IMG/VR virus record: IMGVR_UViG_3300044983_000100
Coordinates: 1 to 36,091 of that record
Direction: 5' to 3' (one strand)
From: a virus
Taxonomy: Duplodnaviria > Caudoviricetes
DNA length: 36,091 nt
Part shown: piece by piece, positions 1 through 36,091 of the stretch
Layout: every line of letters begins with the position of its first letter
Position numbering within the stretch: position 1 is the stretch's first letter
Made by a program: the position numbers and the translations under genes
Notes under the pieces: generated by a model
The model's input: the letters and a program-made list of their open reading frames with translations, nothing else
The model's database searches: none
Told to the model about the DNA's origin: nothing

Positions 1-20
1 CGCCGCCGCGGCCGCGCGGG
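1..20. other. Candidate cos site (10-nt core CGCCGCCGCG plus right flank)
   Basis: Joining the window end to its start gives CGCTCGGC[CGCCGCCGCG]GCCGCGCG. The flanks are a 7/8 inverted repeat around a 10-nt core, located between the HNH and terL genes, where 3'-cos sites normally lie. Confidence 0.55.
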
Positions 21-34
21 AAATCTCCCCCCCG

Positions 35-90
35 GTCGTCCGAAATCGAGTTTTGGGCGGCGGCTTGATCCAAAAAAGAGTTTTGGACGA
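35..90. repeat. Two tandem imperfect palindromes TCCRAAA-NNGAG-TTTTGG, 30 bp apart
   Basis: GAGTTTTGG at 48-56 and 78-86; TCCGAAA at 39-45 and TCCAAAA at 69-75 pair with the TTTTGG halves. Confidence 0.7.
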
Positions 91-1547
91 TGAAGGGCGT
101 CCAGGAGGCGTATCCCGCCGAGATCGTCGCGATCCGGAAGATGCCGTACGGATTGCGCGGCTTCCGCCGATTCGCGAAACTCCTCGGACTGAGGGTCTAC
201 CCGTTCCAGGCGTTCCTGCTCGCGTTCTACTTCGCCGGGGTGATCGAGCTCATCATCCTGATCCCGAAGAAGAACGGGAAGACGACGCTCCTGTCGGTCC
301 TCGCGCTCTACCACCTGCTGATGATCCCCCGAGCCGAGGCGGTGATCGGGGCGGCGTCGAAGGAGCAGGCGGCGATCCTCCATCGGCAGGCGACGCTCCT
401 GATCGAGTCCGCCGGCCTCGAGCGCCGAGCTCTCCCGCACGAGTACGGGAAGCGCGCCGGACCGACCCGGTACGAGGGAGTCTTCGAGGTCCGCGAAGGG
501 ATGCACGTCATCCGGTTCGAGCAGGGCCGGCTCCGGGTCATGCCGCACGAAGCGCGCACCGGGGACGGCGTGATCCCGACGCTCGCGCTCGTCGACGAGC
601 TCCACCGGCATCCGACGGGTGAGCTGTACCAGGTCTGGCGGAACGGTCTGCTCGCCGGCTCGCAGATGATCACGATCTCGACCGCGGGCTCCGATCTCGA
701 CTCGCCTCTCGGGAAACTGCTCACGAAGGCCCGGGAGAGCTACGCGGTCGAGAAGGTTCGCAAGCGCCGGACGTACCGCTCCCCGAGCGGGCAGGTCGTC
801 CTCGTCGAGTACGCGCTCGATCCCGACGACGACCCGGACGATATGAGGCTGGTCCTCCAGGCGAACCCGGCGCCGTGGGTCACGCGGGAGGTCCTCCAGG
901 GCCGGAAAGACTCGCCGATGGAGACGGTCGGGTCCTGGGCGCGGCTCGCCTGCAACCTCTGGATCGCGGGCGACGACGGGCCGGTCGTCGACGGGCCGAC
1001 CTGGGACGCGCTGCGGGTCGACGTCGGCGGCCTCGCGGACGGGGATACGGTCTACCTCGCGACCCGCATCACGCAGCAGGGCGGCGTAGGGATCGGGATC
1101 GCCGCGCCGAAACCGGAGGGCCGGATCGCGGTCCGCGCCGAGATGCTCCCGTACGACTTTCCCGGCCTCGAGTTCGCGTTGCGGCGGCTCGCGGATAGGT
1201 ACGACGTCCGCGTGATCTACGGGTACGCGCCGCAATACGGCCTCGGGGGCGTCCAGGTCATCACCGACGGCGGGCTTCCGCTCGAGGATCAGGCCCAGTC
1301 GCCGAGGGTCCTGATGGAGGCGACCTCGACCTTCATGGCGTTAGTCGCGTCCGGGAAGCTGATCCACGACGGGGACCCCGAGCTCCGCAAGCAAGTGATG
1401 TCCGCGCTCGTCAAGGAGGCTCCCACGGGCTCTTACTTCGTTCCGTCGAAAGAGGTCCAGGGGTTGATCGCCGTGATCCTCGCGGCGGACCAGGCCTCGC
1501 AGCCTCCGAGCAAGCCGACGATCCACGTCTGGAAGGGGACCGGCTGA
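90..1547 (+). CDS. terL: Terminase large subunit (HK97/Terminase_1 type); nuclease domain appears degenerate
   Basis: Walker A IPKKNGKTT, Walker B LALVDELH, coupling motif ITISTAG, C-terminal IHDGDPEL; lies upstream of the portal gene. Confidence 0.93.
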   Translation: MKGVQEAYPAEIVAIRKMPYGLRGFRRFAKLLGLRVYPFQAFLLAFYFAGVIELIILIPKKNGKTTLLSVLALYHLLMIPRAEAVIGAASKEQAAILHRQATLLIESAGLERRALPHEYGKRAGPTRYEGVFEVREGMHVIRFEQGRLRVMPHEARTGDGVIPTLALVDELHRHPTGELYQVWRNGLLAGSQMITISTAGSDLDSPLGKLLTKARESYAVEKVRKRRTYRSPSGQVVLVEYALDPDDDPDDMRLVLQANPAPWVTREVLQGRKDSPMETVGSWARLACNLWIAGDDGPVVDGPTWDALRVDVGGLADGDTVYLATRITQQGGVGIGIAAPKPEGRIAVRAEMLPYDFPGLEFALRRLADRYDVRVIYGYAPQYGLGGVQVITDGGLPLEDQAQSPRVLMEATSTFMALVASGKLIHDGDPELRKQVMSALVKEAPTGSYFVPSKEVQGLIAVILAADQASQPPSKPTIHVWKGTG

Positions 1548-2821
1548 TGGGCCTATGGTCCTGGCTGACCGGCGGCGTCAACCACTCCGGCGAGATCGCG
1601 AACGCGAACCCCCCGGCAACCCCGTCGACCGTCGGAGCCGGCGAAGCAAGCGGCGACCCGAACGGGGTCGAGATCGTCGGCCCCGACGTCGAGGCGCGGT
1701 CCCTGCCGGCGTTCTATCCGTCGCCGTGGAACGGCTGGCCCTCGAGCTGGTCGACGCCGAACTGGGACGGCGAGTCGAGGTTCAATGAGCTGATCGACGT
1801 CGCATGGACCTGCATGGATAAGAACGCTTCGGTCCTCTCGACGCTGCCGGTGTTCAAGACCCGCGGCGGGAAGGTCATGTCGCCGAGCTCCTGGATGATC
1901 AACCCCGACCCGTCGATCTACTCCTCCTGGGAGGAGTTCGCGAACCAGCTCTTCTGGGACGTTCAACTCGGCGAGGCGTTCATCGTGGCGATGAGCCGAT
2001 TCTCGGACGACTACCCGATGCGCTTCCGCGTGATCCCCGGGTGGGCGTTCCACGTCGAGATGGTCGGCGGTGTTCGCCGATACAAGCTCGGGGGCGAGAC
2101 CGGGATCGACGTCACAGAGGACGTCCTTCACATCCGGTACAAGTCGACGACCGACAGCGCGCACGGCGTCGGTCCGCTCGAGGTCGCTGGCGGGAGGATG
2201 CTCACCGCGGGGCTGATCGCGAAGTACGTCCGGGAGATGGCCGCGACCGGCGGGGTTCCGACCCGGACCATCGAGGCGGCCGACGCTCTGACGCCGGACG
2301 AAGCCCAGAGGCTGATGGACGCCTACATGACGGCGCGGGTCCAGAACGCGACCGCGCCGCCCGTCTTCGACAACGGGGCGACGCTCAAGGATCACCCCGC
2401 GGTGTCCCCGAAAGAGATGGCGATGCACGAGCTCGAGCAGTTCAACGAGGCTCGGATCGCCGTCCTGCTGGGCGTCCCGCCGTTCCTCGTCGGGCTTCCC
2501 TCCGGCGGAGACTCGATGACGTACTCGAACGTCTCGACGCTGTTCGACTACCACGACCGTCAGAAGCTCCGGTCGCTCGCCGTCAAGGTGATGAGCGCGC
2601 TCTCGTACTGGGCGCTCCCGCTCGGCCAGCAGGTCGAGATCAACCGCGACGAATACAGTCGGCCGCCGTTCGATCAGCGCGCGGAGGCCTGGTCGAAGCT
2701 GATCGCGTCGGGCGTGATCACGCCGGAGGATGTCGCGGTGTACGAGAACTTCCAGGGCGCGGCGCCGGGTCTGCCGACCGTGACCGAGCCGATGGACGCG
2801 ATCACCGGCGGCGAACAGTAG
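1547..2821 (+). CDS. Portal protein, HK97 family
   Basis: 424 aa with DVLHIRY, GVGPL, IAVLLGVPPFLVG and TYSNV motifs; overlaps the terL stop codon. Confidence 0.93.
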   Translation: MGLWSWLTGGVNHSGEIANANPPATPSTVGAGEASGDPNGVEIVGPDVEARSLPAFYPSPWNGWPSSWSTPNWDGESRFNELIDVAWTCMDKNASVLSTLPVFKTRGGKVMSPSSWMINPDPSIYSSWEEFANQLFWDVQLGEAFIVAMSRFSDDYPMRFRVIPGWAFHVEMVGGVRRYKLGGETGIDVTEDVLHIRYKSTTDSAHGVGPLEVAGGRMLTAGLIAKYVREMAATGGVPTRTIEAADALTPDEAQRLMDAYMTARVQNATAPPVFDNGATLKDHPAVSPKEMAMHELEQFNEARIAVLLGVPPFLVGLPSGGDSMTYSNVSTLFDYHDRQKLRSLAVKVMSALSYWALPLGQQVEINRDEYSRPPFDQRAEAWSKLIASGVITPEDVAVYENFQGAAPGLPTVTEPMDAITGGEQ

Positions 2822-2841: not shown

Positions 2842-3600
2842 ATCCCGTGGCACATCGAGAAGCGCGACGACGAATACTGCGTGATCAAGGACGCCGACGG
2901 GAAGACCGCCGGCTGCCATCCGACCGAGGAGAAGGCGAAGGCGCAGCTCGCGGCGTTGTACGCCTCGGAGAAGACCGAGAGCCGTAAGGAGGCGCCGATC
3001 GAGTCGCGGGCGGCGACCGTCGAGGGCGTGAACTTCCCGGAGCGCCTGATCGAGGTGCTTGCGATTCCGTACGAGCAGGAGGCGATCGTCGAGTACCGCG
3101 GGCAGATATGGCGCGAGACGATCGAGCGCGGTGCGTTCGACGGGATCGAGAAACGGCCGGAGAAGTTCCAGGTCCAGGTCTTCCGAGGCCATGAGGCCGG
3201 AGAGCATTTCCAGAGCAGGCCGGAAACCTCGGGCCTGATCGGGAAGGTCGTCAGCTTCGCGCCCGAGCCGCCCGAGGGGCTGATCGCGAAGGCGAAGATC
3301 GCGAAGACCCCGCTCGGAGACGAGACCCTGACGCTCGCCGACGAGGGCGTCCTCGGCGTGTCCGTCGCCTTCGGGGTACGAGGCTCCGATCAGGTGCTCG
3401 ACCGGATACACCAGAAGCGTCGTATCCGGCGGGCGTTCGTCGATCACCTCGCGTTCCCGGACCGCGGGGCGTACCAAGGCGCGCAGGTGCTCGACGTCCG
3501 CAGCAAGCGGCGTCAAGCCGAGGAGCTCGCGCCGCTGGAAACCCCGCGCCTCGACGAGGTCGTGGCGTGGATGGAGGAGCGAAGGCTCCGCTCGCACTAG
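2842..3600 (+). CDS. Prohead maturation protease (HK97 gp4-like) with short N-terminal domain; start probably non-canonical (ATC 2842), GTG 2881 is the alternative
   Basis: ETIERGAFDG, FRGH, GVSVAF and DHLAFPDRGAYQGAQVLDVR motifs; the frame reads PWHIEKRDDEYCVIK upstream of GTG 2881; SD GAGGAGG at 2826-2832. Confidence 0.85.
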   Translation: MPWHIEKRDDEYCVIKDADGKTAGCHPTEEKAKAQLAALYASEKTESRKEAPIESRAATVEGVNFPERLIEVLAIPYEQEAIVEYRGQIWRETIERGAFDGIEKRPEKFQVQVFRGHEAGEHFQSRPETSGLIGKVVSFAPEPPEGLIAKAKIAKTPLGDETLTLADEGVLGVSVAFGVRGSDQVLDRIHQKRRIRRAFVDHLAFPDRGAYQGAQVLDVRSKRRQAEELAPLETPRLDEVVAWMEERRLRSH

Positions 3601-3725
3601 GGACCCCTCGTAGGAGGAAGGTCGCGCGCAGGCGCGGCGGGTCGGTGCTCGTTGGCCGAGAGGGCCGAGACCTATCCGTAGGCGCGCGCCCGCGCGCCCG
3701 AACCTCCGAAAGGGGGGAACCGCTG

Positions 3726-4958
3726 GTGGAAGAGAACACCAAGACCGATGCCATGATCAATCGGCTCGAGCGAGAGATCGCCGAACGCGATTCGTTCATC
3801 CAGGGCACGGTCGCCAACGCGCAGGACACCGAGCGCGACCTGACCACCTCCGAACAGGAGCTGGTCACGGAGTCTCGGAAGCGCATCGAGGTCGTCGAGG
3901 AGCAACTCGACTCGCTCCGCGCCGCCTCGGTGCGATCGCAGCAGGCCCGACAGAAGGCCGCCGATGTCCAGGCCCAGATGGCGAAGATGCGCCATGAGGT
4001 CGACCAGGGCGAGATCAGCTATCGCTCGGCCGGCGAGTACGTGATGGATCAATACAACGGGCACCTCGGCGATCGGCAGGCGTTGGAGCGCCTGGAGATC
4101 TACAACCGTGCGGCAGCGCACCAGAAGACCTCGGACAACGCCGGGCTCATCCCGACGCCGATCCTGGATGGAGTGATCAACTTCATCGACGCGGCTCGGC
4201 CTCTGGTCAGCCTCATCGGACCCCGGTCGATGCCGGCCGCCACATGGTTCCGACCCCTGGTGACCCAGGGAACGTCGGTGGCGGTCCAGGGGTCGGCGGG
4301 AGCGGCAGCGGATGAAAAGGCCGAGCTCGTGTCGCAGAAGATGACGATCTCCAAGCTCACGGCGAACGCTGTGACCTACGGCGGATACGTCAACGTCTCC
4401 CGGCAGAACATCGACTTCTCGGCGCCGGGGATCATGGACACGATCATCAACGACCTCGCCGCTCGGTACGCCGTGCAGACGGAGGCGGCGCTCGGGACCA
4501 ACCTCGACGCCTCCACGTCGACGAACGTCGGCTACGGTGCTTCTCCGACCGCCGCGACGATCCGTGCGGCGCTCTGGACGGCAGCGTCGACGGTCTACAC
4601 GGCCACCGCCGGCCTGGGTCGGGTCGTCTTGGCGCTGTCGCCCGGACGCCTTCCGGTGTTCGGTCCGCTGTTCGCCCCGATCGTGAGCGTTGCCCAGACC
4701 GGAGACGGTCTGTCCGCGGGCGACTTCTCGCAGGGCCTGATCGGTGCCGTCGCCGGGATCCCGACGTACATGTCGGCCGGCCTCGGCACGAACAAGGCCT
4801 TCCTGTTCTCGACCGCCGCGGTGGAGGTCTACGAGCAGAGGGTCGGAACGCTCCAGGTGACCGAGCCTTCGGTGCTCGGCGTCCAGGTGGCATACGCGGG
4901 CTACTTCACGCCGCTGCGTCTCGTGGACAACGGCGTTATCGAGCTCACCGCAACGTAA
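3726..4958 (+). CDS. Major capsid protein, HK97 fold, with N-terminal coiled-coil delta domain
   Basis: GTG 3726 after AGGGGGG; coiled-coil first ~100 aa; GLIPTPI, TYGGYVNVSRQNID; position after the protease. Confidence 0.92.
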   Translation: MEENTKTDAMINRLEREIAERDSFIQGTVANAQDTERDLTTSEQELVTESRKRIEVVEEQLDSLRAASVRSQQARQKAADVQAQMAKMRHEVDQGEISYRSAGEYVMDQYNGHLGDRQALERLEIYNRAAAHQKTSDNAGLIPTPILDGVINFIDAARPLVSLIGPRSMPAATWFRPLVTQGTSVAVQGSAGAAADEKAELVSQKMTISKLTANAVTYGGYVNVSRQNIDFSAPGIMDTIINDLAARYAVQTEAALGTNLDASTSTNVGYGASPTAATIRAALWTAASTVYTATAGLGRVVLALSPGRLPVFGPLFAPIVSVAQTGDGLSAGDFSQGLIGAVAGIPTYMSAGLGTNKAFLFSTAAVEVYEQRVGTLQVTEPSVLGVQVAYAGYFTPLRLVDNGVIELTAT

Positions 4959-5035: not shown

Positions 5036-5365
5036 ATGGCGGAGGACATCAGCGTCAAGGCCGACCCGACCCCCGACCCGACGCCGGAGGAAGCGGCGCG
5101 GCTGCGGCTGCAGCTCGAGCGCGACCTCGCCATGCAGGAAGGGATCGGAAGGACCGACGAGGCCAAGGCGATCAAGGCGCGGCTCAAGGATCTCCCCGCG
5201 CCGGCAGCCCCGGTCGAGATCGAGGCCGAGGCCGAGGAGTCCGACTTCGGAACCGGGAACTATGAGGACCGGACGGTCGCGCAGCTCAAGGCGCTCGCCT
5301 CGAGCAAGGGCCTCCCGACCTCCGGCACCAAGGATGACCTGATCGCGACCCTCAGGGAGGGCTGA
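5036..5365 (+). CDS. Small head-region protein with C-terminal SAP/HeH-like domain
   Basis: YEDRTVAQLKALASSKGLPTSGTKDDLIATL; SD AAGGAGAAG. Confidence 0.8.
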   Translation: MAEDISVKADPTPDPTPEEAARLRLQLERDLAMQEGIGRTDEAKAIKARLKDLPAPAAPVEIEAEAEESDFGTGNYEDRTVAQLKALASSKGLPTSGTKDDLIATLREG

Positions 5366-17612: not shown

Positions 17613-18326
17613 ATGGAACTTCCTTATGCACTCGGAGCCAAGCGTGACCGTCCGGACCCGCGGGACCTGCTGGTCAACACCGCCGCGCTCGCTCCCCAGG
17701 CGGCGCTGATCGACCGAAAGATGTACACGATGGTCAGCCCGGACTTCCGGATCAACCAGGGACCCGAGGGGACGTGCGTCGGTCACGGAGACACGAACCT
17801 GCTGATGGCCGGCGCCTCGGAGCACCGGACCTACCCGGAGTTCGCGACCGAGGAGTCGGCGCACCAGTTCGCTCGCAAGCTCTACTTCGAGACGACCGGG
17901 GACGCCACCTACAAGCAAGGGGCGAACCCGCGCGCCGCCTGCGCAAAGCTCCTCGAATGGGGCCTGATCGACTCGTACTGGTCGGTCCCCCAGGTCGACG
18001 ACGTCGTCACGACCCTGCTCACGTTCGGGCCGGTCGGCCTCTGTCTCCCCTGGTACTTCTCGATGTACGACAACCAGGCGTCGATGTCGAAGGTCTACGG
18101 CAACTGGTGGATCAAAGTGAACCTGGACTCGGACCTCGCCGGGTATCACTGGGTCGTCGCGACCGGCGTCGATCTCGATCCGGACGACGGCGCTCTCCCG
18201 TGGCTCCGTATCCAGAACTCCTGGGGCTCGGGCTGGGGGTACAACGGGACGGCGCGGCTCACGATCGAGAACTTCCGAATCCTCAACCAGTGGAACAACT
18301 GGACGTTCGCGGAAAGGTCGTTCTGA
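17613..18326 (+). CDS. Papain-like (C1 family) cysteine peptidase
   Basis: NQGPEGTCVG (Gln and catalytic Cys), GYHWVV (His), IQNSWGSGWGYNG (Asn). Confidence 0.85.
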   Translation: MELPYALGAKRDRPDPRDLLVNTAALAPQAALIDRKMYTMVSPDFRINQGPEGTCVGHGDTNLLMAGASEHRTYPEFATEESAHQFARKLYFETTGDATYKQGANPRAACAKLLEWGLIDSYWSVPQVDDVVTTLLTFGPVGLCLPWYFSMYDNQASMSKVYGNWWIKVNLDSDLAGYHWVVATGVDLDPDDGALPWLRIQNSWGSGWGYNGTARLTIENFRILNQWNNWTFAERSF

Positions 18327-18853
18327 TGGCCGTCGACTTCGACACCACCCAGCCTAAGCGTCTCCAGATCAAGCTCACCGCGGCAATCTCCCGGCTCGAG
18401 AAGACCGCTGCCTACAAGGCGCCGCTCGAGATCCCCTCCTGCGACAGGGATCACCCCGCCGGACTCATCACCCGCAGTTTCAAGTACAAGCGCGACGGCA
18501 ACGCCGCGGTGGTGCTGGTGACCTGTCACGCGAAGGTCATGGTCGGTCTACTCAAGGCGATGCGGAAGGAGCCCGGCATCCAGGTCACCGTCTCCTCGAC
18601 GAGCATGTACTCGGGGAGCTACCGGACCTGGGACCAGCAGAACACCCTCTACCAGATGTACAAGGCCGGCACCGGCTACAAGGCGGCGTCGCCTTGTCTC
18701 GGCTACCACCGCCAGGGCCGCGCACTCGATCTGTTGGAGACCACGAAGGCCGAACAGGATGCCGTCGAGAGTGTTCGAGTGGACGGCCTCCGCTTCTACA
18801 ACGGTGCGGGCTTCGGCGATCCCCGGCACAACACCCTCGGCGCGTATGGCTGA
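18326..18853 (+). CDS. M15-family Zn peptidase (endolysin candidate)
   Basis: ATG overlaps the previous stop; SYRTWDQQ..LY, GYHRQGRALD and DPRH motifs. Confidence 0.8.
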   Translation: MAVDFDTTQPKRLQIKLTAAISRLEKTAAYKAPLEIPSCDRDHPAGLITRSFKYKRDGNAAVVLVTCHAKVMVGLLKAMRKEPGIQVTVSSTSMYSGSYRTWDQQNTLYQMYKAGTGYKAASPCLGYHRQGRALDLLETTKAEQDAVESVRVDGLRFYNGAGFGDPRHNTLGAYG

Positions 18854-19580
18854 CGAGCAGCCGGACCCTCCCGCCCTAGCTCGCGGCAACTCCGGGAACC
18901 GCTACCCGGTCCCGGACCCGACGACGCTGACGACTGAGGCCCTGCGCCGCGAGGTCGAAGCGCTACAGCTCCTCGTCGAGCAGCGGATCGCGGCGCTCAA
19001 AGAGCTGCAGGAGCAGGTCACGAACTCGCTCAAGCAACGCTCGGACGAGAAAGAGCTTCGCCTCCAGGAGCAGCTCGGGGCGCTCGAGTCTCAGACGCGG
19101 GACCTGATCGCGGAGGCGATGCGGAGCTGCGACACCCAGTTCGAGCACGTGCGGCATCAGTTCAAGCAAGTCGAGGCCCTCCGGCTGGAGCAGAAAGCCG
19201 ACACGAAGGCCGCCGTCGACGCCGCCCTGACCGCTCAGAAGGAGGCCGTCAAGGAACAGACGGCGGCGTTCCGGGAGGCCGTCGAGAAGTCCGACGTCGC
19301 GACGGAGAAGCAGATCGAGACGATCGCGAGCGCAGCGAATCTCGCGCGGGAGGAACTGCGCCGACGGGCGGACGAGAACAAGGGGAGCATCGTGGACCTC
19401 GAACGGTCGCTCCGCGCGGAGATCGGGAAGGTCGACGCGAAGGTCAACAGCGCCACCTCGGCCCGCACCGGGGAGAAGGAAAGCAAGAGCTCGACCTACG
19501 CGACGATCGGCGTGGTCGTCGCGATCCTCGCGGTCGGGCTCGCGGTTCTCGGAGCACTCGCCGCTCGAGGCGGGCCGTAG
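18846..19580 (+). CDS. Coiled-coil protein with C-terminal TM anchor (lysis module)
   Basis: Long E/K/Q/A heptad region followed by TIGVVVAILAVGLAVLGAL. Confidence 0.75.
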   Translation: MADEQPDPPALARGNSGNRYPVPDPTTLTTEALRREVEALQLLVEQRIAALKELQEQVTNSLKQRSDEKELRLQEQLGALESQTRDLIAEAMRSCDTQFEHVRHQFKQVEALRLEQKADTKAAVDAALTAQKEAVKEQTAAFREAVEKSDVATEKQIETIASAANLAREELRRRADENKGSIVDLERSLRAEIGKVDAKVNSATSARTGEKESKSSTYATIGVVVAILAVGLAVLGALAARGGP

Positions 19581-22632: not shown

Positions 22633-22868
22633 TGCCGGGCTATCGTCCCTACACCGAGTGGTCCCGCTGCGCCGAATGCAACGGCGTCGACGTCCTGAGC
22701 ATCGGCGTGATCCATCACCGCGCCGGCTGCTCGCAGGATCCCGATGGCACCCCGGGCCAGACAGCGGTGCCGCTCGAGCGGCCCAAGCCAGCGTTGGTTC
22801 GGCGTAGGGACCGTATCGCGCCGTCGGCGCTGGCTCGGCTCCGAGAGTTGCGGACGGTGAGTCGATGA
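22632..22868 (+). CDS. Hypothetical Zn-binding protein (CxxC...HxxxC)
   Basis: TGATG coupling; 78 aa. Confidence 0.6.
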
Positions 22869-23290
22869 GCCAGTCGCTTGAGTCCAGACTCCGAGAGTCC
22901 ACCGAGATGCGCAGCGACGGATGCCGGATTTGGACCGGGGCCTGCAACACGAATGGTTACGGCCGGATCTCTTTCAACAACCAGAAGCACTATGTCCACA
23001 GGCTCTCCTACGAGCTGCGCGTCGGACCGATTCCGCCGGGGCTCGTTCTCGACCACCTATGCCGCAATACACTCTGCGTCAATCCCGGTCACCTTGAGCC
23101 CTGCACCGATCGCGTCAACATCCTTCGTGGTGTCGGCTGGACGGCGGAACAGGCTCGGAAGACGCGCTGTGTTCGAGGGCATGAGTTCACGCCCGAGAAC
23201 ACATGGATCAGTCCACGTGGACACCGAGGCTGTCGAGCCTGCAACCGAGAGAACCAGCGCCGTCGGACCGCGCAGCGGGCGGTCGCCTGA
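22865..23290 (+). CDS. HNH endonuclease (HNH_3 type) with C-terminal Zn knuckle
   Basis: [33 protein letters not shown]...N and CVRGH...CRAC. Confidence 0.9.
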
Positions 23291-26158: not shown

Positions 26159-26706
26159 GTGAAGTATCGGACGATCGTCGTCGACCCACCGTGGTTCTAC
26201 AGCCGAGCGGTGAAGGGCGGGCCGAAGGCTGGTGACGACGTGCACCACGCCCCCTTCCCCTACCCGACCATGACCGTTCCCGAGATTGCGGCATTGCCTT
26301 TGGTTGACCTCGCCGACGACGACTGCGCGCTGTGGTTGTGGGCGACGAACGCCTATCTGCCCGATGCGTTCGGTCTGCTGTTCGGCTGGGGTTTCAAGTA
26401 CCGCCAGACGCTCGTATGGGGAAAGCACAATCCGATGCCGGTCGGAAGAGCGTTGCTCCATCGGGCGCGGAGTTTCTCCTATTCGCCAAACGCGGCCAAC
26501 CGAAGATGACCTGGGCGTGGCCCAACTCTGTCTTCATGCTCGCCCGACCCCTGCCGCGTCGCCACAGCACCAAGCCCGAATCGTTCATGGACTACATCGA
26601 GGCGAGCAGTCCTTCACCGCGACTTGAGATGTTCGCGCGACGTCAACGACTCGGCTGGGATACCTGGGGCAACGAAGCTCTTGAGCATGTGGAGTTGGCG
26701 ACATGA
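26159..26706 (+). CDS. MT-A70-family adenine methyltransferase split over two frames (programmed -1 shift, or pseudogene/assembly indel)
   Basis: Frame 1: IVVDPPW, YPTM, LWLWATN, TLVWGK; -1 frame: EFLLFAKRG, HSTKP, LEMFAR, GWDTWGNE. Confidence 0.85.
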
Positions 26707-28912: not shown

Positions 28913-29133
28913 CCACCCTCCGCGCCGACGCCGCCAAGGCTGCCGAGGAGGCCGCGATCAAGCTCGCTCACATCCGCGGCTGTTCGAAGGTCGAAGCGTC
29001 CCAAGCCGTCGCCCAGACCTACGCCGAGAACCTCCGGCTGTCCAGGACCACGACGATGGAGCCGTACTGGCGGCTGATGGTCGACGTCGCCGAGCAGCAG
29101 GTGGGCGCGGCGCTGGGGGAGTCGGGCCGATGA
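28909..29133 (+). CDS. Hypothetical protein
   Basis: GTGA coupling after GGAGG. Confidence 0.6.
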   Translation: MTTLRADAAKAAEEAAIKLAHIRGCSKVEASQAVAQTYAENLRLSRTTTMEPYWRLMVDVAEQQVGAALGESGR

Positions 29134-29561
29134 GTACCCTCACCCGCCCGCCGAAGCCGCGCGCCGGCCCCTACGCCGGCAACGCCGACCGCTGCCAACG
29201 CTGCCCGAGACTCGCCGAGATCCTGCAGTGGTGCAGGCATCACGCCGAGGAGGTCGCCGATCAGCGTGTCTCGAGGTTCGTCCGCCGGCGTGATGGGGCC
29301 TGCGTCATGTGCGGCGAGCGAGCCCCGTGGCTCCTGGAGGCAGCTCACATCCTGAGACGCCGCTACATGCGCGTCCGCTGGAACCCGGCGAACCTCCTCG
29401 CGCTCTGCAACTCGTGCCACTACGGCTTCGACCACGAGCCGAAGACCGGACGCGCTTGGTTACGTGACAACCGACCCGGGCTCCTCGAGCAGCTCGAGGC
29501 GTTGAAGGACTCGGCGCCGATCCCCGACGTCGGCGAAGTGATCGTGAGGTACGCGGCGTGA
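29130..29561 (+). CDS. NinG/Rap-like HNH nuclease
   Basis: SRFVRRRDGACVMCG, EAAHILRR, RWNPANLLALCNSCH. Confidence 0.75.
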   Translation: MSTLTRPPKPRAGPYAGNADRCQRCPRLAEILQWCRHHAEEVADQRVSRFVRRRDGACVMCGERAPWLLEAAHILRRRYMRVRWNPANLLALCNSCHYGFDHEPKTGRAWLRDNRPGLLEQLEALKDSAPIPDVGEVIVRYAA

Positions 29562-31307: not shown

Positions 31308-31504
31308 CTCTCTGCCGAACCTGTGGCGATTCACAAGCCCAGGTCGCCGGCCAGTGCCGAGCCTGCTACGTCTACGCTCGGCGTACGGGGGAGGACCGAT
31401 CCGACTACCTGGCCCGCCTCGAGGCTCGGCGTGAGGCGGCCCGGGACCGCGCTTGGAGGCGGTTACGGATCCGGTGGATGTCGGAGGCCCGGGGTAGCAT
31501 GTGA
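31304..31504 (+). CDS. Zn-finger protein (CxxC...GxCxxCY)
   Basis: TTGA coupling; CRTC...GQCRACYVYARRTG. Confidence 0.65.
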   Translation: MTLCRTCGDSQAQVAGQCRACYVYARRTGEDRSDYLARLEARREAARDRAWRRLRIRWMSEARGSM

Positions 31505-31544
31505 GGTCAGGAAGTGCCCCGGCGCTGTTGGCGCAGCCCGGGGC

Positions 31545-32060
31545 ATGGCCGACAGCCGCCAAGGACTGCCGACAGTGGACCAACCTAGCATCCCGGGCCT
31601 TCCGGCTGAGGAGCGTCGGCTATGTCCTGGTTGTCAGACCGTCCGCGCCGTCTCCGACTTCCGGGCCGCTTGCACCTACTGCCGGTTCTGCTTCCGATTC
31701 CAGAACTCCCTGCGGCTGGCTGTGCCCTATGATCGCCTGCTCCGCGAGCAGGACGGGCTTTGCAAGATCTGTGGCGTCGAGCTCGGCCAGGACCGTCGTG
31801 CAGATGTTGACCACATTCACGTCAAGCCGGAGGACCGGGATGGCTTCGTCTACGTACGTGGTCTTCTCTGCTCCCGCTGCAACAACCTGATCGGCGCTGC
31901 CGAGGACCGGCCGGAACTTCTCCGGTCGGCTGCCATCTACCTGGAAGCACAGGCCGAGCGCTTCTATCTCCCGGTGGTCCGAGTGAAGCGCAAGCACCGG
32001 TCACACGGCCCGCGTCAGGTAACCGGCAAACAGGCCGGAAAAGGTATCCCATCGTTGTAA
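31545..32060 (+). CDS. Endonuclease VII-like protein
   Basis: QDGLCKICG, VDHIH, VRGLLCSRCNNLIG, AAIYL. Confidence 0.88.
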   Translation: MADSRQGLPTVDQPSIPGLPAEERRLCPGCQTVRAVSDFRAACTYCRFCFRFQNSLRLAVPYDRLLREQDGLCKICGVELGQDRRADVDHIHVKPEDRDGFVYVRGLLCSRCNNLIGAAEDRPELLRSAAIYLEAQAERFYLPVVRVKRKHRSHGPRQVTGKQAGKGIPSL

Positions 32061-32553: not shown

Positions 32554-32982
32554 ATGCCCGACGTCAAACACAAGTTCACGACCGCGATCCCCGACGACGG
32601 CACGCCGGTTGGCGGGGTCGGCAGTGACGAGTGGAACGATCTCCACGTCTGGCCGACGAACTCGACGATCGGCAACCTGACGCTGGCCGATGGCGACTTC
32701 GCGATCCACTTCTACGAGATCGCCCTGACCGGCGAACTCGTCCTGGCCGGCACGGCGGAGATTTCGGTCCTCGGCTGGAACGACACGAAGGTCTACAACG
32801 TCCTCGGCAACCCTCGCACGCCGAAAGCTCCGTTCCGCATCCCCAACGGGCATGACTACACGGAGGTAGACGAACTCGGACTGACGGGCGAGATCGAGGC
32901 CTTCATCGAAGGTGATGCCGAACTCTACATCGCCAACTTCAACGAGATCTCCGAGACCATACTCGCGGGAAGGACGTTCTAA
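32554..32982 (+). CDS. Acidic putative virion accessory protein
   Basis: KHKFTTAIPDDG...SDEWNDLH N-terminus; short beta-like repeats. Confidence 0.6.
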   Translation: MPDVKHKFTTAIPDDGTPVGGVGSDEWNDLHVWPTNSTIGNLTLADGDFAIHFYEIALTGELVLAGTAEISVLGWNDTKVYNVLGNPRTPKAPFRIPNGHDYTEVDELGLTGEIEAFIEGDAELYIANFNEISETILAGRTF

Positions 32983-33621
32983 ATGGGAACAGCGCTCTTC
33001 GATAACCAGGCTGTGCCAGCGACGCCGGCGGCGGGCAAGTCCCGCGTCTTCGTGGACTCGACGACGAAGCGGTTGGCCCAGTTGGATGATACGGGGGCCG
33101 TTGGAAAGAGCACTTACATCTCGGGGAACGACTCGACGGCCTCGCAGGTGCTTCCCTCAGGCGGTGAGACCTACATCACGAACTCGGGTCTCCTGATTCC
33201 ATCCTTCGGCATGAAGGCCGGACAGTTGTACCGCTGGTATCTGTACATCAGTAAGACGGCTGCGGGGACTGGTGCTGCTGTCTTCAGGCTCAAGCAGGGT
33301 GCCAACCAGACCACTGCCGATACCACGCGGGCAACGATCACGTCGGCCGCTCAGACGGCAGCCGTGGACAGCGGTGTATTCATGTTCATGTGTCACGTGC
33401 GGTCGGTGAGTGCTACGGGCCAGGTGGTGTTCAACTACGCTATTGCTGGCAAGAGGGCGGCTGATGCCGTTGGATTCGGAAACTCGTCCCTGAGCAACAT
33501 CCCCGCCACTTTCGACAACACGGCGCTTGCAGGGACGTATGTCGGGCTCTCCATCGATACCATCGTTACCGGTACCCCGGTGTGGACCATTGAAGTTGTT
33601 GAATGCAAGCTCACCGGCTAG
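32983..33621 (+). CDS. Putative fibre/receptor-binding protein
   Basis: PATPAAGKSRVFVDS.TKRL..DDTG N-terminus; T/S/G-rich beta body. Confidence 0.6.
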   Translation: MGTALFDNQAVPATPAAGKSRVFVDSTTKRLAQLDDTGAVGKSTYISGNDSTASQVLPSGGETYITNSGLLIPSFGMKAGQLYRWYLYISKTAAGTGAAVFRLKQGANQTTADTTRATITSAAQTAAVDSGVFMFMCHVRSVSATGQVVFNYAIAGKRAADAVGFGNSSLSNIPATFDNTALAGTYVGLSIDTIVTGTPVWTIEVVECKLTG

Positions 33622-33629
33622 GAGGCTAG

Positions 33630-33782
33630 ATGCTCGAGAAGCTCAAGGCTCGAATCCGCCGCAAGCCGAAGGCGACGCAAACCCTAAGCGCCAAGGTCAT
33701 CCGAGCAAACGGAACCGTGGAAGACCTCGGGGTGATCTCCGAGACCAAGAGCGAGGGATGGGGAGTGAAGGCCGATGGGTGA
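33630..33782 (+). CDS. 50-aa hypothetical protein (not in ORF track)
   Basis: SD GGAGG; SAKVIRANGTVEDLG. Confidence 0.65.
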   Translation: MLEKLKARIRRKPKATQTLSAKVIRANGTVEDLGVISETKSEGWGVKADG

Positions 33783-34146
33783 CGTCCTGACCAACCTCGG
33801 CGAGGAATGGGCAGCCAGTCGCCTCCTGGGGTCTGGGTCGCTCAACGTCGCCGCGACACACGGTGGGTTCGGAACAGCCGCCGGTGCGGCTGCTAAGACG
33901 GACACCACGCTCGGTACCGAAGTAGAGACTCGCGGCGCCGTGACTCCAACCCTAACGGGGTCAGGAGCGACCGCGAAGGCTCAATACGTCTGGACCAACA
34001 CGGCGACCGCAGGACGAGCCATCGTGGAAGCCGGGCTGTTCACCGCGTCGTCCGGCGGCACGATGCTCACGTCGCACGACTTCACGGTGATCAACCTTCT
34101 CTCCGGTGACGCGATCCAGTTCACCCTGACGATCGACCCGGCGTAG
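33775..34146 (+). CDS. Putative fibre/collar structural subunit
   Basis: LTN.G, GFGT, DTTLGTE, IVEAGLFTASSGGTML and INL.SGDAIQFT pattern of small beta-sandwich virion proteins. Confidence 0.65.
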   Translation: MGDVLTNLGEEWAASRLLGSGSLNVAATHGGFGTAAGAAAKTDTTLGTEVETRGAVTPTLTGSGATAKAQYVWTNTATAGRAIVEAGLFTASSGGTMLTSHDFTVINLLSGDAIQFTLTIDPA

Positions 34147-34152
34147 CCCCCG

Positions 34153-35247
34153 ATGGCTGGAGCCTTCCAGTCAAACGTCTTCCAGAACAGTGCGTTCCAA
34201 ACCGGCGGAGCAACGACTGTCCCGAAGACGCTCACCGTCGGCGTCACCTATACGACAGCCCTACAGAAACGGGCGAACAGGCTCCTAGCGGTCGCGACCG
34301 TCTACGCCGTTCCGCTCCTCAAGATCGTCGCCAAGAGCCTCGGGCTCGGCGTGACGTATTCCGTGGTCCTGGTCGCGCTCAAGGTAGTCCAGAAGGCGCT
34401 CGCGGTTTCGGCGACGTACACGGTGGCGTTGCAGAAACAAGCCAACAAGGTCCTCGTCCTCGCCGCGACGTACGCAACGGCGCTCGTTCGCAAGGCGCTG
34501 AAGAATCTGGTCGTCGGAGCGACTTACTCGCTCGCGTTCTCGAAGCTGGTGCTCAAGGCACTCCTCGTCGCGGCGACGTACACCCCAGTCCTCGTCGCCC
34601 TGAAGGTCTTCCAGAAAGCGCTGTCGGTAGGGGTCACCTACACCGTCGCGTTGACGAAGCGAGCGAGCAAGGCGTTCGCCCTCGCGGCGACCTACACCAC
34701 GGCGCTGACGAAGCTCGTCTCGAAGCCGCTCGCCCTCGCCTCGACGTATACGCCTGTCCTACGGAAGCAAGCCTCGAAGCTCCTCGTCCTCGCCGCGACC
34801 TACTCCCCGGTCCTCGCGGCGCTCAAGGTCTTCCAGAAGGCTCTGACCGTCTCGGCGACCTACACCGTGGCCCTAAGCCGGCAGACGAGCAAGGCGCTGG
34901 CCGTGGCCGTGACGTACGCCGCAACCGTAAGTAAGCGGATCTCGAAGTCGATCGTCCTCGGAGCAACCTACACGGCGTCCCTCGTTCGGACTCGAGCGAA
35001 GGCGCTGATCCTGGCCGTTTCCCACGCCGTCTCGCTCGTGACCCAGTTCATCCCCTACGGGGGGCCGTCGGCCGGCCCGGTCCGGACCCCGACGTACGCG
35101 GTCCCGGTCTCGACCGCGGACGACGTTCTCGCTCTGACCGGCGCGAACCGTGGTAACGGGGCAACCTCCGAGAACGGCGCAGGCGTACTGACCGGCGCGA
35201 ACCGAGGGAGCCCTCGGACGACGAGCAACGATGCGGAGGTGCCGTGA
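34153..35247 (+). CDS. Basic tandem-repeat protein (15 repeats of 18/20 aa)
   Basis: KxLxVxATYxxxLxK repeats; N-terminal AFQ/VFQ/AFQ motif. Confidence 0.8.
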   Translation: MAGAFQSNVFQNSAFQTGGATTVPKTLTVGVTYTTALQKRANRLLAVATVYAVPLLKIVAKSLGLGVTYSVVLVALKVVQKALAVSATYTVALQKQANKVLVLAATYATALVRKALKNLVVGATYSLAFSKLVLKALLVAATYTPVLVALKVFQKALSVGVTYTVALTKRASKAFALAATYTTALTKLVSKPLALASTYTPVLRKQASKLLVLAATYSPVLAALKVFQKALTVSATYTVALSRQTSKALAVAVTYAATVSKRISKSIVLGATYTASLVRTRAKALILAVSHAVSLVTQFIPYGGPSAGPVRTPTYAVPVSTADDVLALTGANRGNGATSENGAGVLTGANRGSPRTTSNDAEVP

Positions 35248-35426
35248 TGGCGATCCAGACGAACATGACCGTGAAGGTTCGGCGGCTCTGGGTAGCGCGG
35301 ATCGCGCTCTGGCTCCTGACCCTTCCGAGGGTCGAGGTCCACGCTGGTCGGCGCAGGATCGCCTCGAAGCCGCTTCCGTTCGCGATCTCGGCCGACAGCG
35401 TCGAGGTCGGGAAGATCGAGCCGTGA
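35247..35426 (+). CDS. Small hypothetical protein
   Basis: SD GGAGG; TGATG coupling. Confidence 0.55.
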   Translation: MAIQTNMTVKVRRLWVARIALWLLTLPRVEVHAGRRRIASKPLPFAISADSVEVGKIEP

Positions 35427-35785
35427 GCCAGACCGCCTGGGAGCGACGACCCCCCGACCACACGGTGACCCAGAACGACGTCTCGGTCCTGATCGAGGAC
35501 GTCCTCCGAGACTCGAAGGGCGTGATCGTCGACCTCACCGGCGTCACGGAGGTCCGGTACCAGGCACGCCTCCCCGGGCAGGCGATCTCGGCGGGGATAG
35601 ACCAAGCCGCGACGGTCGTGGCCCCCGCTACGGGCGGGACGGTACGCCGCACCCTCGTCGCCGGGGATACGGACACCTCCGGAGACCTGATCGAGCAGTG
35701 GAAGGTGACGTTCTCCGGCGGGCAGATAGAGCGCTTCCCCGCCCGTAAGCACAAGCTGCGGATCGTCCCGGACTCGGTGGTATGA
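35423..35785 (+). CDS. BppU-N-like (Ig-like) virion adaptor protein
   Basis: QND....L.D..G.IVDLTG, G.V......DTDTSG, WKVTFSGG..ERFP. Confidence 0.7.
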   Translation: MSQTAWERRPPDHTVTQNDVSVLIEDVLRDSKGVIVDLTGVTEVRYQARLPGQAISAGIDQAATVVAPATGGTVRRTLVAGDTDTSGDLIEQWKVTFSGGQIERFPARKHKLRIVPDSVV

Positions 35786-36054
35786 AGCCCCGGCGTAGGC
35801 AGTTCGGCAGAGGGTACGGCCCCGGCTCCCCCTCGGGTAGGTACTCCTGGTACCACCGCAAGCTGGCGAGGGAGGTAGTAGCCAACGCTGTGTGCGCCTG
35901 GGTAGATCGAGGTGGGTGCGACGGTCCCCTCGAGGCCGACCATATCCTCCCCCGGGACTGGGGTGGGCAGAGCACGAGGGAGAACCTGCGTCCCCTCTGT
36001 CGGCGGCACAACCGACAGCGCGGCGTCGAGACGAAGAAACAGAAACGGAAATGA
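35782..36054 (+). CDS. HNH endonuclease, HK97 gp74-like (packaging-associated)
   Basis: C......C...EADHILP...GG....NLRPLCRRHN; last gene before the cos-like junction. Confidence 0.88.
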   Translation: MKPRRRQFGRGYGPGSPSGRYSWYHRKLAREVVANAVCAWVDRGGCDGPLEADHILPRDWGGQSTRENLRPLCRRHNRQRGVETKKQKRK

Positions 36055-36091
36055 AAGTCGGCGTCGATTTTTTTTCAATACTGCGCTCGGC

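Follow-up and report, generated by a model that had tools for sequence, protein, structure and literature searches.

A predicted nuclease-dead large terminase beside a candidate cos-cutting HNH endonuclease in a tailed phage lineage

Known terminases and the locus under study

In the accessible text of reviews, the cutting of concatemers is assigned to the large terminase (TerL), and the sole dead nuclease named is that of phi29 (PMC9410871, PMC13595911, PMC13595956). HK97, with its TerL gp2 (6z6d) and its HNH protein gp74, provides the best structural match to the TerL described here. The catalytic residues of HK97 TerL are given as D302, D388 and D471 (PMC9410871); HK97 keeps all three and has a small terminase (TerS), and gp74 is described as only stimulating cleavage by TerL (PMC13595911). 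One model, as set out in the part of its source that is available, has an HNH protein nick one strand of cos and TerL the other; the same source calls the need of many cos phages for an extra HNH obscure and reports that purified sk1 HrdP cut non-specifically (PMC12967558). The Bacillus phage gamma-type HNH and the Skunavirus HrdP are likewise encoded by small genes beside cos or terminase, and the accessible descriptions treat them as one-strand nickases or non-specific helpers of TerL, not as the sole cutter. The TerL of phi29, gp16, combines an ATPase with an inactive nuclease domain and operates without a TerS, packaging unit-length, protein-capped DNA that needs no cut.

The window analysed here is a stretch of 36,091 nucleotides (positions 1 to 36,091 of the 36 kb phage record IMGVR_UViG_3300044983_000100), and its first gene encodes a TerL (Pfam TerL_ATPase, PHROG 9). 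It has in common with HK97 an HNH gene beside cos, the gene order TerL-portal-protease-capsid and, with a polarity that is probable for the window, 3' cohesive ends, but it lacks the triad, apparently has a 4-nt overhang and yielded no TerS. Tail tube and tape measure genes lie downstream of the capsid gene (the positions of the features discussed are in Table 1). The window also encodes an integrase, several nucleases, two repressor-like proteins and a replication-initiator-like protein, and we therefore take it to be a temperate tailed phage. Relatives in GTDB genomes (32 loci) come mainly from Solirubrobacterales and other Actinomycetota assemblies, and the host is probably a soil actinobacterium. 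No close cultured phage was found, the tblastn identities reaching ~22–27% at best among the best 30 of 152 records. The virion-like genes at the right genome end stand apart from the main tail module, and in three relatives (L027, L035 and L036) genes like this set seem to precede the HNH gene as well.

Table 1. Positions of the features discussed, in nucleotides of the window
Feature	Position	Strand	Remark
Left physical genome end (right half of cos)	1..25	.	Conserved cos motif 12–14 nt inside; 89 nt before TerL start
TerL, 485 aa, HK97-like	90..1547	+	Intact ATPase and predicted nuclease-dead RNase H-like domain
Walker A (Lys64) to Walker B (Asp169-Glu170)	264..605	+	Conserved
C-terminal RNase H-like domain	987..1499	+	Fold retained, catalytic residues lost
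Arg326 at first catalytic Asp position (HK97 D302, inferred)	1065..1067	+	
Tyr379 at second catalytic Asp position (HK97 D388)	1224..1226	+	
Gln457 at third catalytic Asp position (HK97 D471)	1458..1460	+	
Portal gene	1547..2821	+	Directly 3' of TerL
Protease gene	2881-3600		After portal
Capsid gene	3723-4958		After protease
Small SAP-domain protein	5036-5365		Immediately after capsid gene
Papain-family peptidase	17613-18326		Near putative lysis region
Large coiled-coil membrane protein	18759-19580		Beside papain-family peptidase region
HNH_3 gene	22865-23290		
MT-A70-like methyltransferase	26159-26706		Apparently split; overlapping frames 26159-26509 and 26332-26706
NinG-like HNH gene	29130-29561		
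Endonuclease VII-like gene	31323-32060		
Virion-like genes	32554-35785		At right genome end, just before HNH
Gp80-like fibre protein	33775-34146		
Repetitive Ala/Val/Leu/Lys-rich ORF, 364 aa	34153-35247		
gp74-like HNH endonuclease, 90 aa, His54 and Asn77	35782-36054	+	Candidate cos-cutting enzyme
Right genome end (left half of cos)	36060..36091	.	T-tract

The likeness to phi29 does not extend far beyond the motor itself. Replication of unit-length genomes in the manner of phi29, with no cut needed, is scarcely credible for this phage: the vestigial nuclease domain reported for phi29 TerL (PMC9410871; PMC13595956) would be in its favour, but the scanned ORFs include no protein-primed polymerase, the genome carries repressors, an integrase and a replication-initiator-like protein, IMG/VR reports no end repeats for the record, and end-to-end junction DNA exists in a close relative (L002). 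Whereas phi29 DNA is packaged uncut, the window appears to belong to a temperate phage with junction DNA and cut cos ends.

ATPase, fold and catalytic positions of TerL

A first-pass annotation of the window had read its TerL as a pure translocase, with intact ATPase motifs and a full-length C-terminal domain that carries other residues where three acids are expected, and this description held. The ORF contains zero internal stops, its ATPase domain matches PF03354 (E 2.9e-12), and in all TerL groups conservation stands at 99–100% for Lys64 of Walker A and Glu170 of Walker B. We define the HK97-like cos TerL class by PF03354 together with the Pfam nuclease domain PF20441; the latter is matched by 43 of 73 aligned C-domains and has no match in the window TerL. 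A single-sequence PDB search aligned the C-domain weakly, and its structural model (pLDDT 96) presents a full RNase H fold, for which the best match is the HK97 nuclease domain 6z6d (Z 19.5, rmsd 2.3, 167 residues).

Among aligned homologues (the best 120 of 1061), intact relatives carry G-V-D, F/Y-D-P and I-D-A at the columns of Arg326, Tyr379 and Gln457, and the three codons read as the annotation had claimed. Alignment to the HK97 profile, which it had proposed as a check, places Tyr379 on D388 and Gln457 on D471, on the assumption that the numbering of the PDB chain is offset by 10 residues; D302 lies outside this HMM alignment, and Arg326 is assigned to it from the intact homologues and from the end of strand 1 in the model. 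The Asp of a D-x-T motif after site 1 is absent too, the loops beside sites 1 and 3 are shortened, and the position of HK97 K463 appears to align with Pro452. No conserved acid occupies the catalytic columns in the dead group, where the nearby Glu455 is acidic in just 29%, and alignment and secondary structure together suggest a pocket with no substitute acid.

TerL might still nick DNA through a rebuilt or composite site, made up of Glu361, Glu455, Asp427, Asp429 or residues from a bound HNH. We think this improbable. Glu361, Asp427 and Asp429 are acidic in 97–100% of fully dead TerLs, and one or two of the triad acids are kept in 73 of 188 TerLs, both of which favour such a site; by secondary structure, however, these three residues lie on helix A and the H-D-G-D turn rather than on strand 1, strand 4 or the last helix, and intact relatives often carry the same acids. 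The residues that replace the triad are bulky, basic or variable, and the genome end is shifted where the triad is lost, as described below. The TerL nuclease is very probably dead; a nuclease-dead TerL that serves only as a translocase is the best reading that the sequences support, and cleavage of cos by TerL itself is predicted to be absent.

This condition extends well beyond the window. A set composed of the 120 proteins and loci L001–L116, restricted to lengths of at least 400 aa and with duplicates removed (188 of 223 retained), contains 53 TerLs with a full triad, 62 with none of it and 73 with one or two acids, although the labels of the distant rows L092, L098 and L180 may reflect misalignments or frameshifts. 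A 123-row clade that includes the window TerL is without any full triad (support 98, SH-like, FastTree), and on a nuclease-domain FastTree built with the catalytic columns masked the triad state changes five times in all; the loss is, on these trees, old and lineage-wide. Replacements vary among dead TerLs (R/Y/Q, S/P/R and R/D/A, for example). The search of homologues for the window's own combination, another suggested check, recovered R/Y/Q in 15 of the 188 sequences, so the change is not a sequencing error. The annotation had spoken of three separate substitutions as an argument against error or decay: the residues are as it described them, but they are not private to the window, belonging instead to an old clade-wide loss with varied replacements.

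The domain that has lost its catalytic residues is nevertheless under purifying selection. Its dN/dS is 0.09–0.20 in eight pairs, compared with 0.12 and 0.21 in two intact pairs (values were obtained from 10 of 15 pairs, and several have dS > 1), and structural positions, among them Trp305, His426, Gly428 and Ala461, are 97–100% conserved. Together with the recurrence of the same residues in homologues, this selection rules out sequencing error or decay. The ATPase tree (10 state changes) and the C-domain tree (5) disagree, which suggests exchange of dead C-domains among ATPase lineages. Seven proteins (P0037, P0040, P0043, P0046, P0048, P0049 and P0063) carry a near-identical dead C-domain on a very different ATPase with a variant Walker A, an arrangement that also points to domain swapping within TerL.

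The cos site, its ends and its overhang

Window base 1 is exactly where contigs from the runs X1 (possibly the run that yielded the window), X2 and X4 start; in a further run, X3, a contig of the L002 type starts at the homologous base. Many viral contigs of relatives begin within ~100 nt of TerL, and contigs that bridge the junction are present in X3 and X4. At the other end, the X2 contig stops 16 nt short of the X1 right end, and the far ends of four further records (G004 and G006–G008) are unlike cos ends. The genome is cut at a fixed cos site and has cohesive ends, the length and polarity of which we infer.

Two further readings are a defective element and a satellite for which a helper phage's terminase does the cutting. 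The CheckV completeness of 49% and the failure to find a small terminase are compatible with either, but both are very unlikely, as head, tail, lysogeny and replication genes are all present, the TerL ORF is unbroken and subject to purifying selection, the phage turns up in several runs, and its ends differ from those of intact relatives.

That difference emerged from an unsupervised motif search of 75 contig starts, which found a CGCGAGAAA-like motif near the left end. Among motifs scoring at least 7, the offset from the left end is 6 nt in 14 of 18 intact loci and 11–14 nt in 22 of 26 dead loci; overall, the left end lies 11–14 nt before the conserved motif in dead loci versus 6–8 nt in intact relatives. 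The offset agrees with TerL state in 46 of the 47 loci of a selected set (37 of these loci, with offsets of 6–14 nt, plus 10 that carry a second type of motif; loci whose motif was weak or far from the end were omitted). L132 has a dead TerL with an offset of 7 nt, and the end shift of the main clade is also seen in two small dead lineages that fall outside it (L040/L078 and L149/L172). An independent-pairs test of whether the shifted end goes with a dead TerL was not significant, and since it comprises just one or two independent starred pairs it is unable to reach significance. At 23 dead cos sites anchored by eye, the sequence leans towards GAG-N4-NTC symmetry (14–20 of 23 per position); the window's own cos is weakly symmetric and a poor fit to this pattern. 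A scan with a 14-nt upstream motif returned mostly unrelated loci.

Several comparisons of ends converge on 4 nt. In L002, whose TerL is 96% identical to that of the window, 4 nt separate the points that match the window's right and left ends. The ends of G001 leave 4 nt when set against the junction-bearing L205, L019 and L035, and the right end of L369 and the left end of L008 leave 4 nt in L009. G010 has the same 4 nt at both ends, beside non-matching low-complexity letters, a pattern that we take to reflect a library type retaining 3' overhangs. The TerLs of the phages with a 4-nt gap or overlap are all triad-less (four dead phages). The same comparison gives 9 nt at the two ends of the intact G005, and in six intact close relatives an AC-C(C/G) step ~7 nt before the left end would correspond to an overhang of about that length. 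A 4-nt 3' overhang is likely for phages with a dead TerL, its polarity being deduced from contig ends and not from raw reads.

The HNH nuclease, the proposed mechanism and its parallels

Between the end of the HNH gene and the right genome end there are 37 nt. With a profile seeded largely from the TerL loci under study, we looked at non-duplicate main-clade loci in which 600 nt or more precede Walker A, and found an HNH upstream in 17 of the 18; the exception, L049, starts at cos. Counting every triad-less locus, the figure is 21 of 25. His54 is invariant in 25 aligned HNHs. HNH genes adjoin intact TerLs as well, so the presence of the gene does not discriminate dead from intact. The full HNH alignment was too diverse for use in scanning; a scan with A3 returned just two already known loci, and records G004–G008 gave no HNH match. 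Among hand-picked, right-ended HNH contigs of distant phages (L208–L232 and L388–L444), 25 of 30 end in AC, which matches the nick site reported in the accessible text for cos-adjacent HNHs (PMC3592412), and TerL is intact in all three of the contigs in which it was checked. These ends support the view that, in ordinary HNH-cos systems, the HNH makes a conserved nick at the right end.

Other enzymes could in principle act on a genome whose TerL is dead. That an endonuclease VII-like protein, a NinG-like HNH, HNH_3 or a host enzyme makes one or both nicks seems unlikely to us, even though genes for the first three are encoded in the window and, in L009, an endonuclease VII-like gene (read by eye) is placed between HNH and cos. 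The gp74-like HNH alone is seen consistently beside cos, and a fixed, partly symmetric site with shared geometry suits a single conserved phage enzyme.

No small terminase gene lies between cos and TerL, a gap of 89 nt, and there is no PF05119 match, no match to a three-sequence TerS-like profile and, in 68 ORFs, no PHROG TerS, though a divergent TerS may be encoded elsewhere. Many intact relatives also lack room for TerS between cos and TerL, which means that its absence there does not depend on whether the triad has been lost. Four of them (L045, L065, L080 and L083) have no small terminase gene there, as is true of most of the window TerL subfamily, nuclease intact or not; L069, L079, L082 and L049 have a short TerS-like gene.

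With a TerL that lacks catalytic acids, and yet fixed ends and a likely 4-base overhang, the neighbouring HNH likely makes both cuts. Our preferred reading, which we regard as reasonably probable, is that TerL only pumps and that the cos-adjacent HNH makes both nicks, with a predicted 4-base 3' overhang. In intact relatives the HNH would nick one strand and TerL the other, leaving a longer overhang (9 nt in one phage and perhaps ~7 nt in six). The HNH would then have gained the ability to place nicks in both strands at a spacing of 4 nt, two copies probably acting together on a site of loose symmetry, whereupon the active site of TerL would have become dispensable. Dimeric His-Me nucleases typically leave short 3' staggers. 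It is likely that the dead domain persists as a structural part of the motor, in contact with the portal or with DNA as described for phi29, and because no small terminase was found the HNH may also supply recognition of cos. A wider proposal, which we advance tentatively and with some doubt, is that of a two-protein packaging machine: the 90-residue HNH would replace both TerS and the TerL nuclease, recognising cos and cutting both of its strands, much as dimeric restriction enzymes do, so that 4-nt ends result, with TerL acting as a pure pump. Such machines may have arisen on more than one occasion, including in cultured phages such as Omega.

If this mechanism is correct, a large natural lineage produces precise genome ends, with an altered overhang, in spite of having lost the TerL active site, and an HNH protein can be a true maturation nuclease. 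The type of genome end would be predictable from TerL sequence, the HNH would be a very small candidate for a site-specific double-strand cutter, and a short cos fragment and the two small proteins would allow a direct test of which enzyme nicks which strand. We found no prior report of a nuclease-dead TerL in cos phages, in literature whose coverage stops short of most subscription papers and supplements.

A second TerL family, from cultured actinophages, is also of interest. In many of its 16 aligned members (Corndog gp32, L463:13529-15040; Omega gp11, L464:4412-6964; and L465–L478) the RNase H acids look missing or incomplete. Judged by eye, the Omega and Redno2 TerLs are without all three acids in the C-domain and Corndog keeps the first. 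The triad of a P. acnes phage TerL also looks degenerate by eye, and Hammy, which we take to be a cluster K phage, keeps the first two acids in the alignment. Overhangs of 11 nt are reported for the P. acnes phage group (PMC6025933) and ends of 10–11 nt for cluster K phages (PMC3203893), in the text available for each. An apparently degenerate P. acnes TerL in a group with 11-nt ends indicates that a dead TerL is not always paired with 4-nt ends, and a universal rule equating the two is not accepted.

The closest parallel among cultured phages is with mycobacteriophage clusters J (Omega) and O (Corndog), for which 4-nt 3' overhangs are described in papers whose accessible portions make no mention of a dead nuclease (PMC3706429, PMC4351075). 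Cluster O, like the window, has an HNH near the terminase. The Corndog TerL, however, belongs to a different family from that of the window (a weak PF03237 match), and clusters J and O encode Ku, whereas the window genome contains no Ku gene. We treat this parallel as a lead and not as proof; from the sequences compared, nuclease-degenerate TerLs may be widespread, an idea that is testable in cultured phages.
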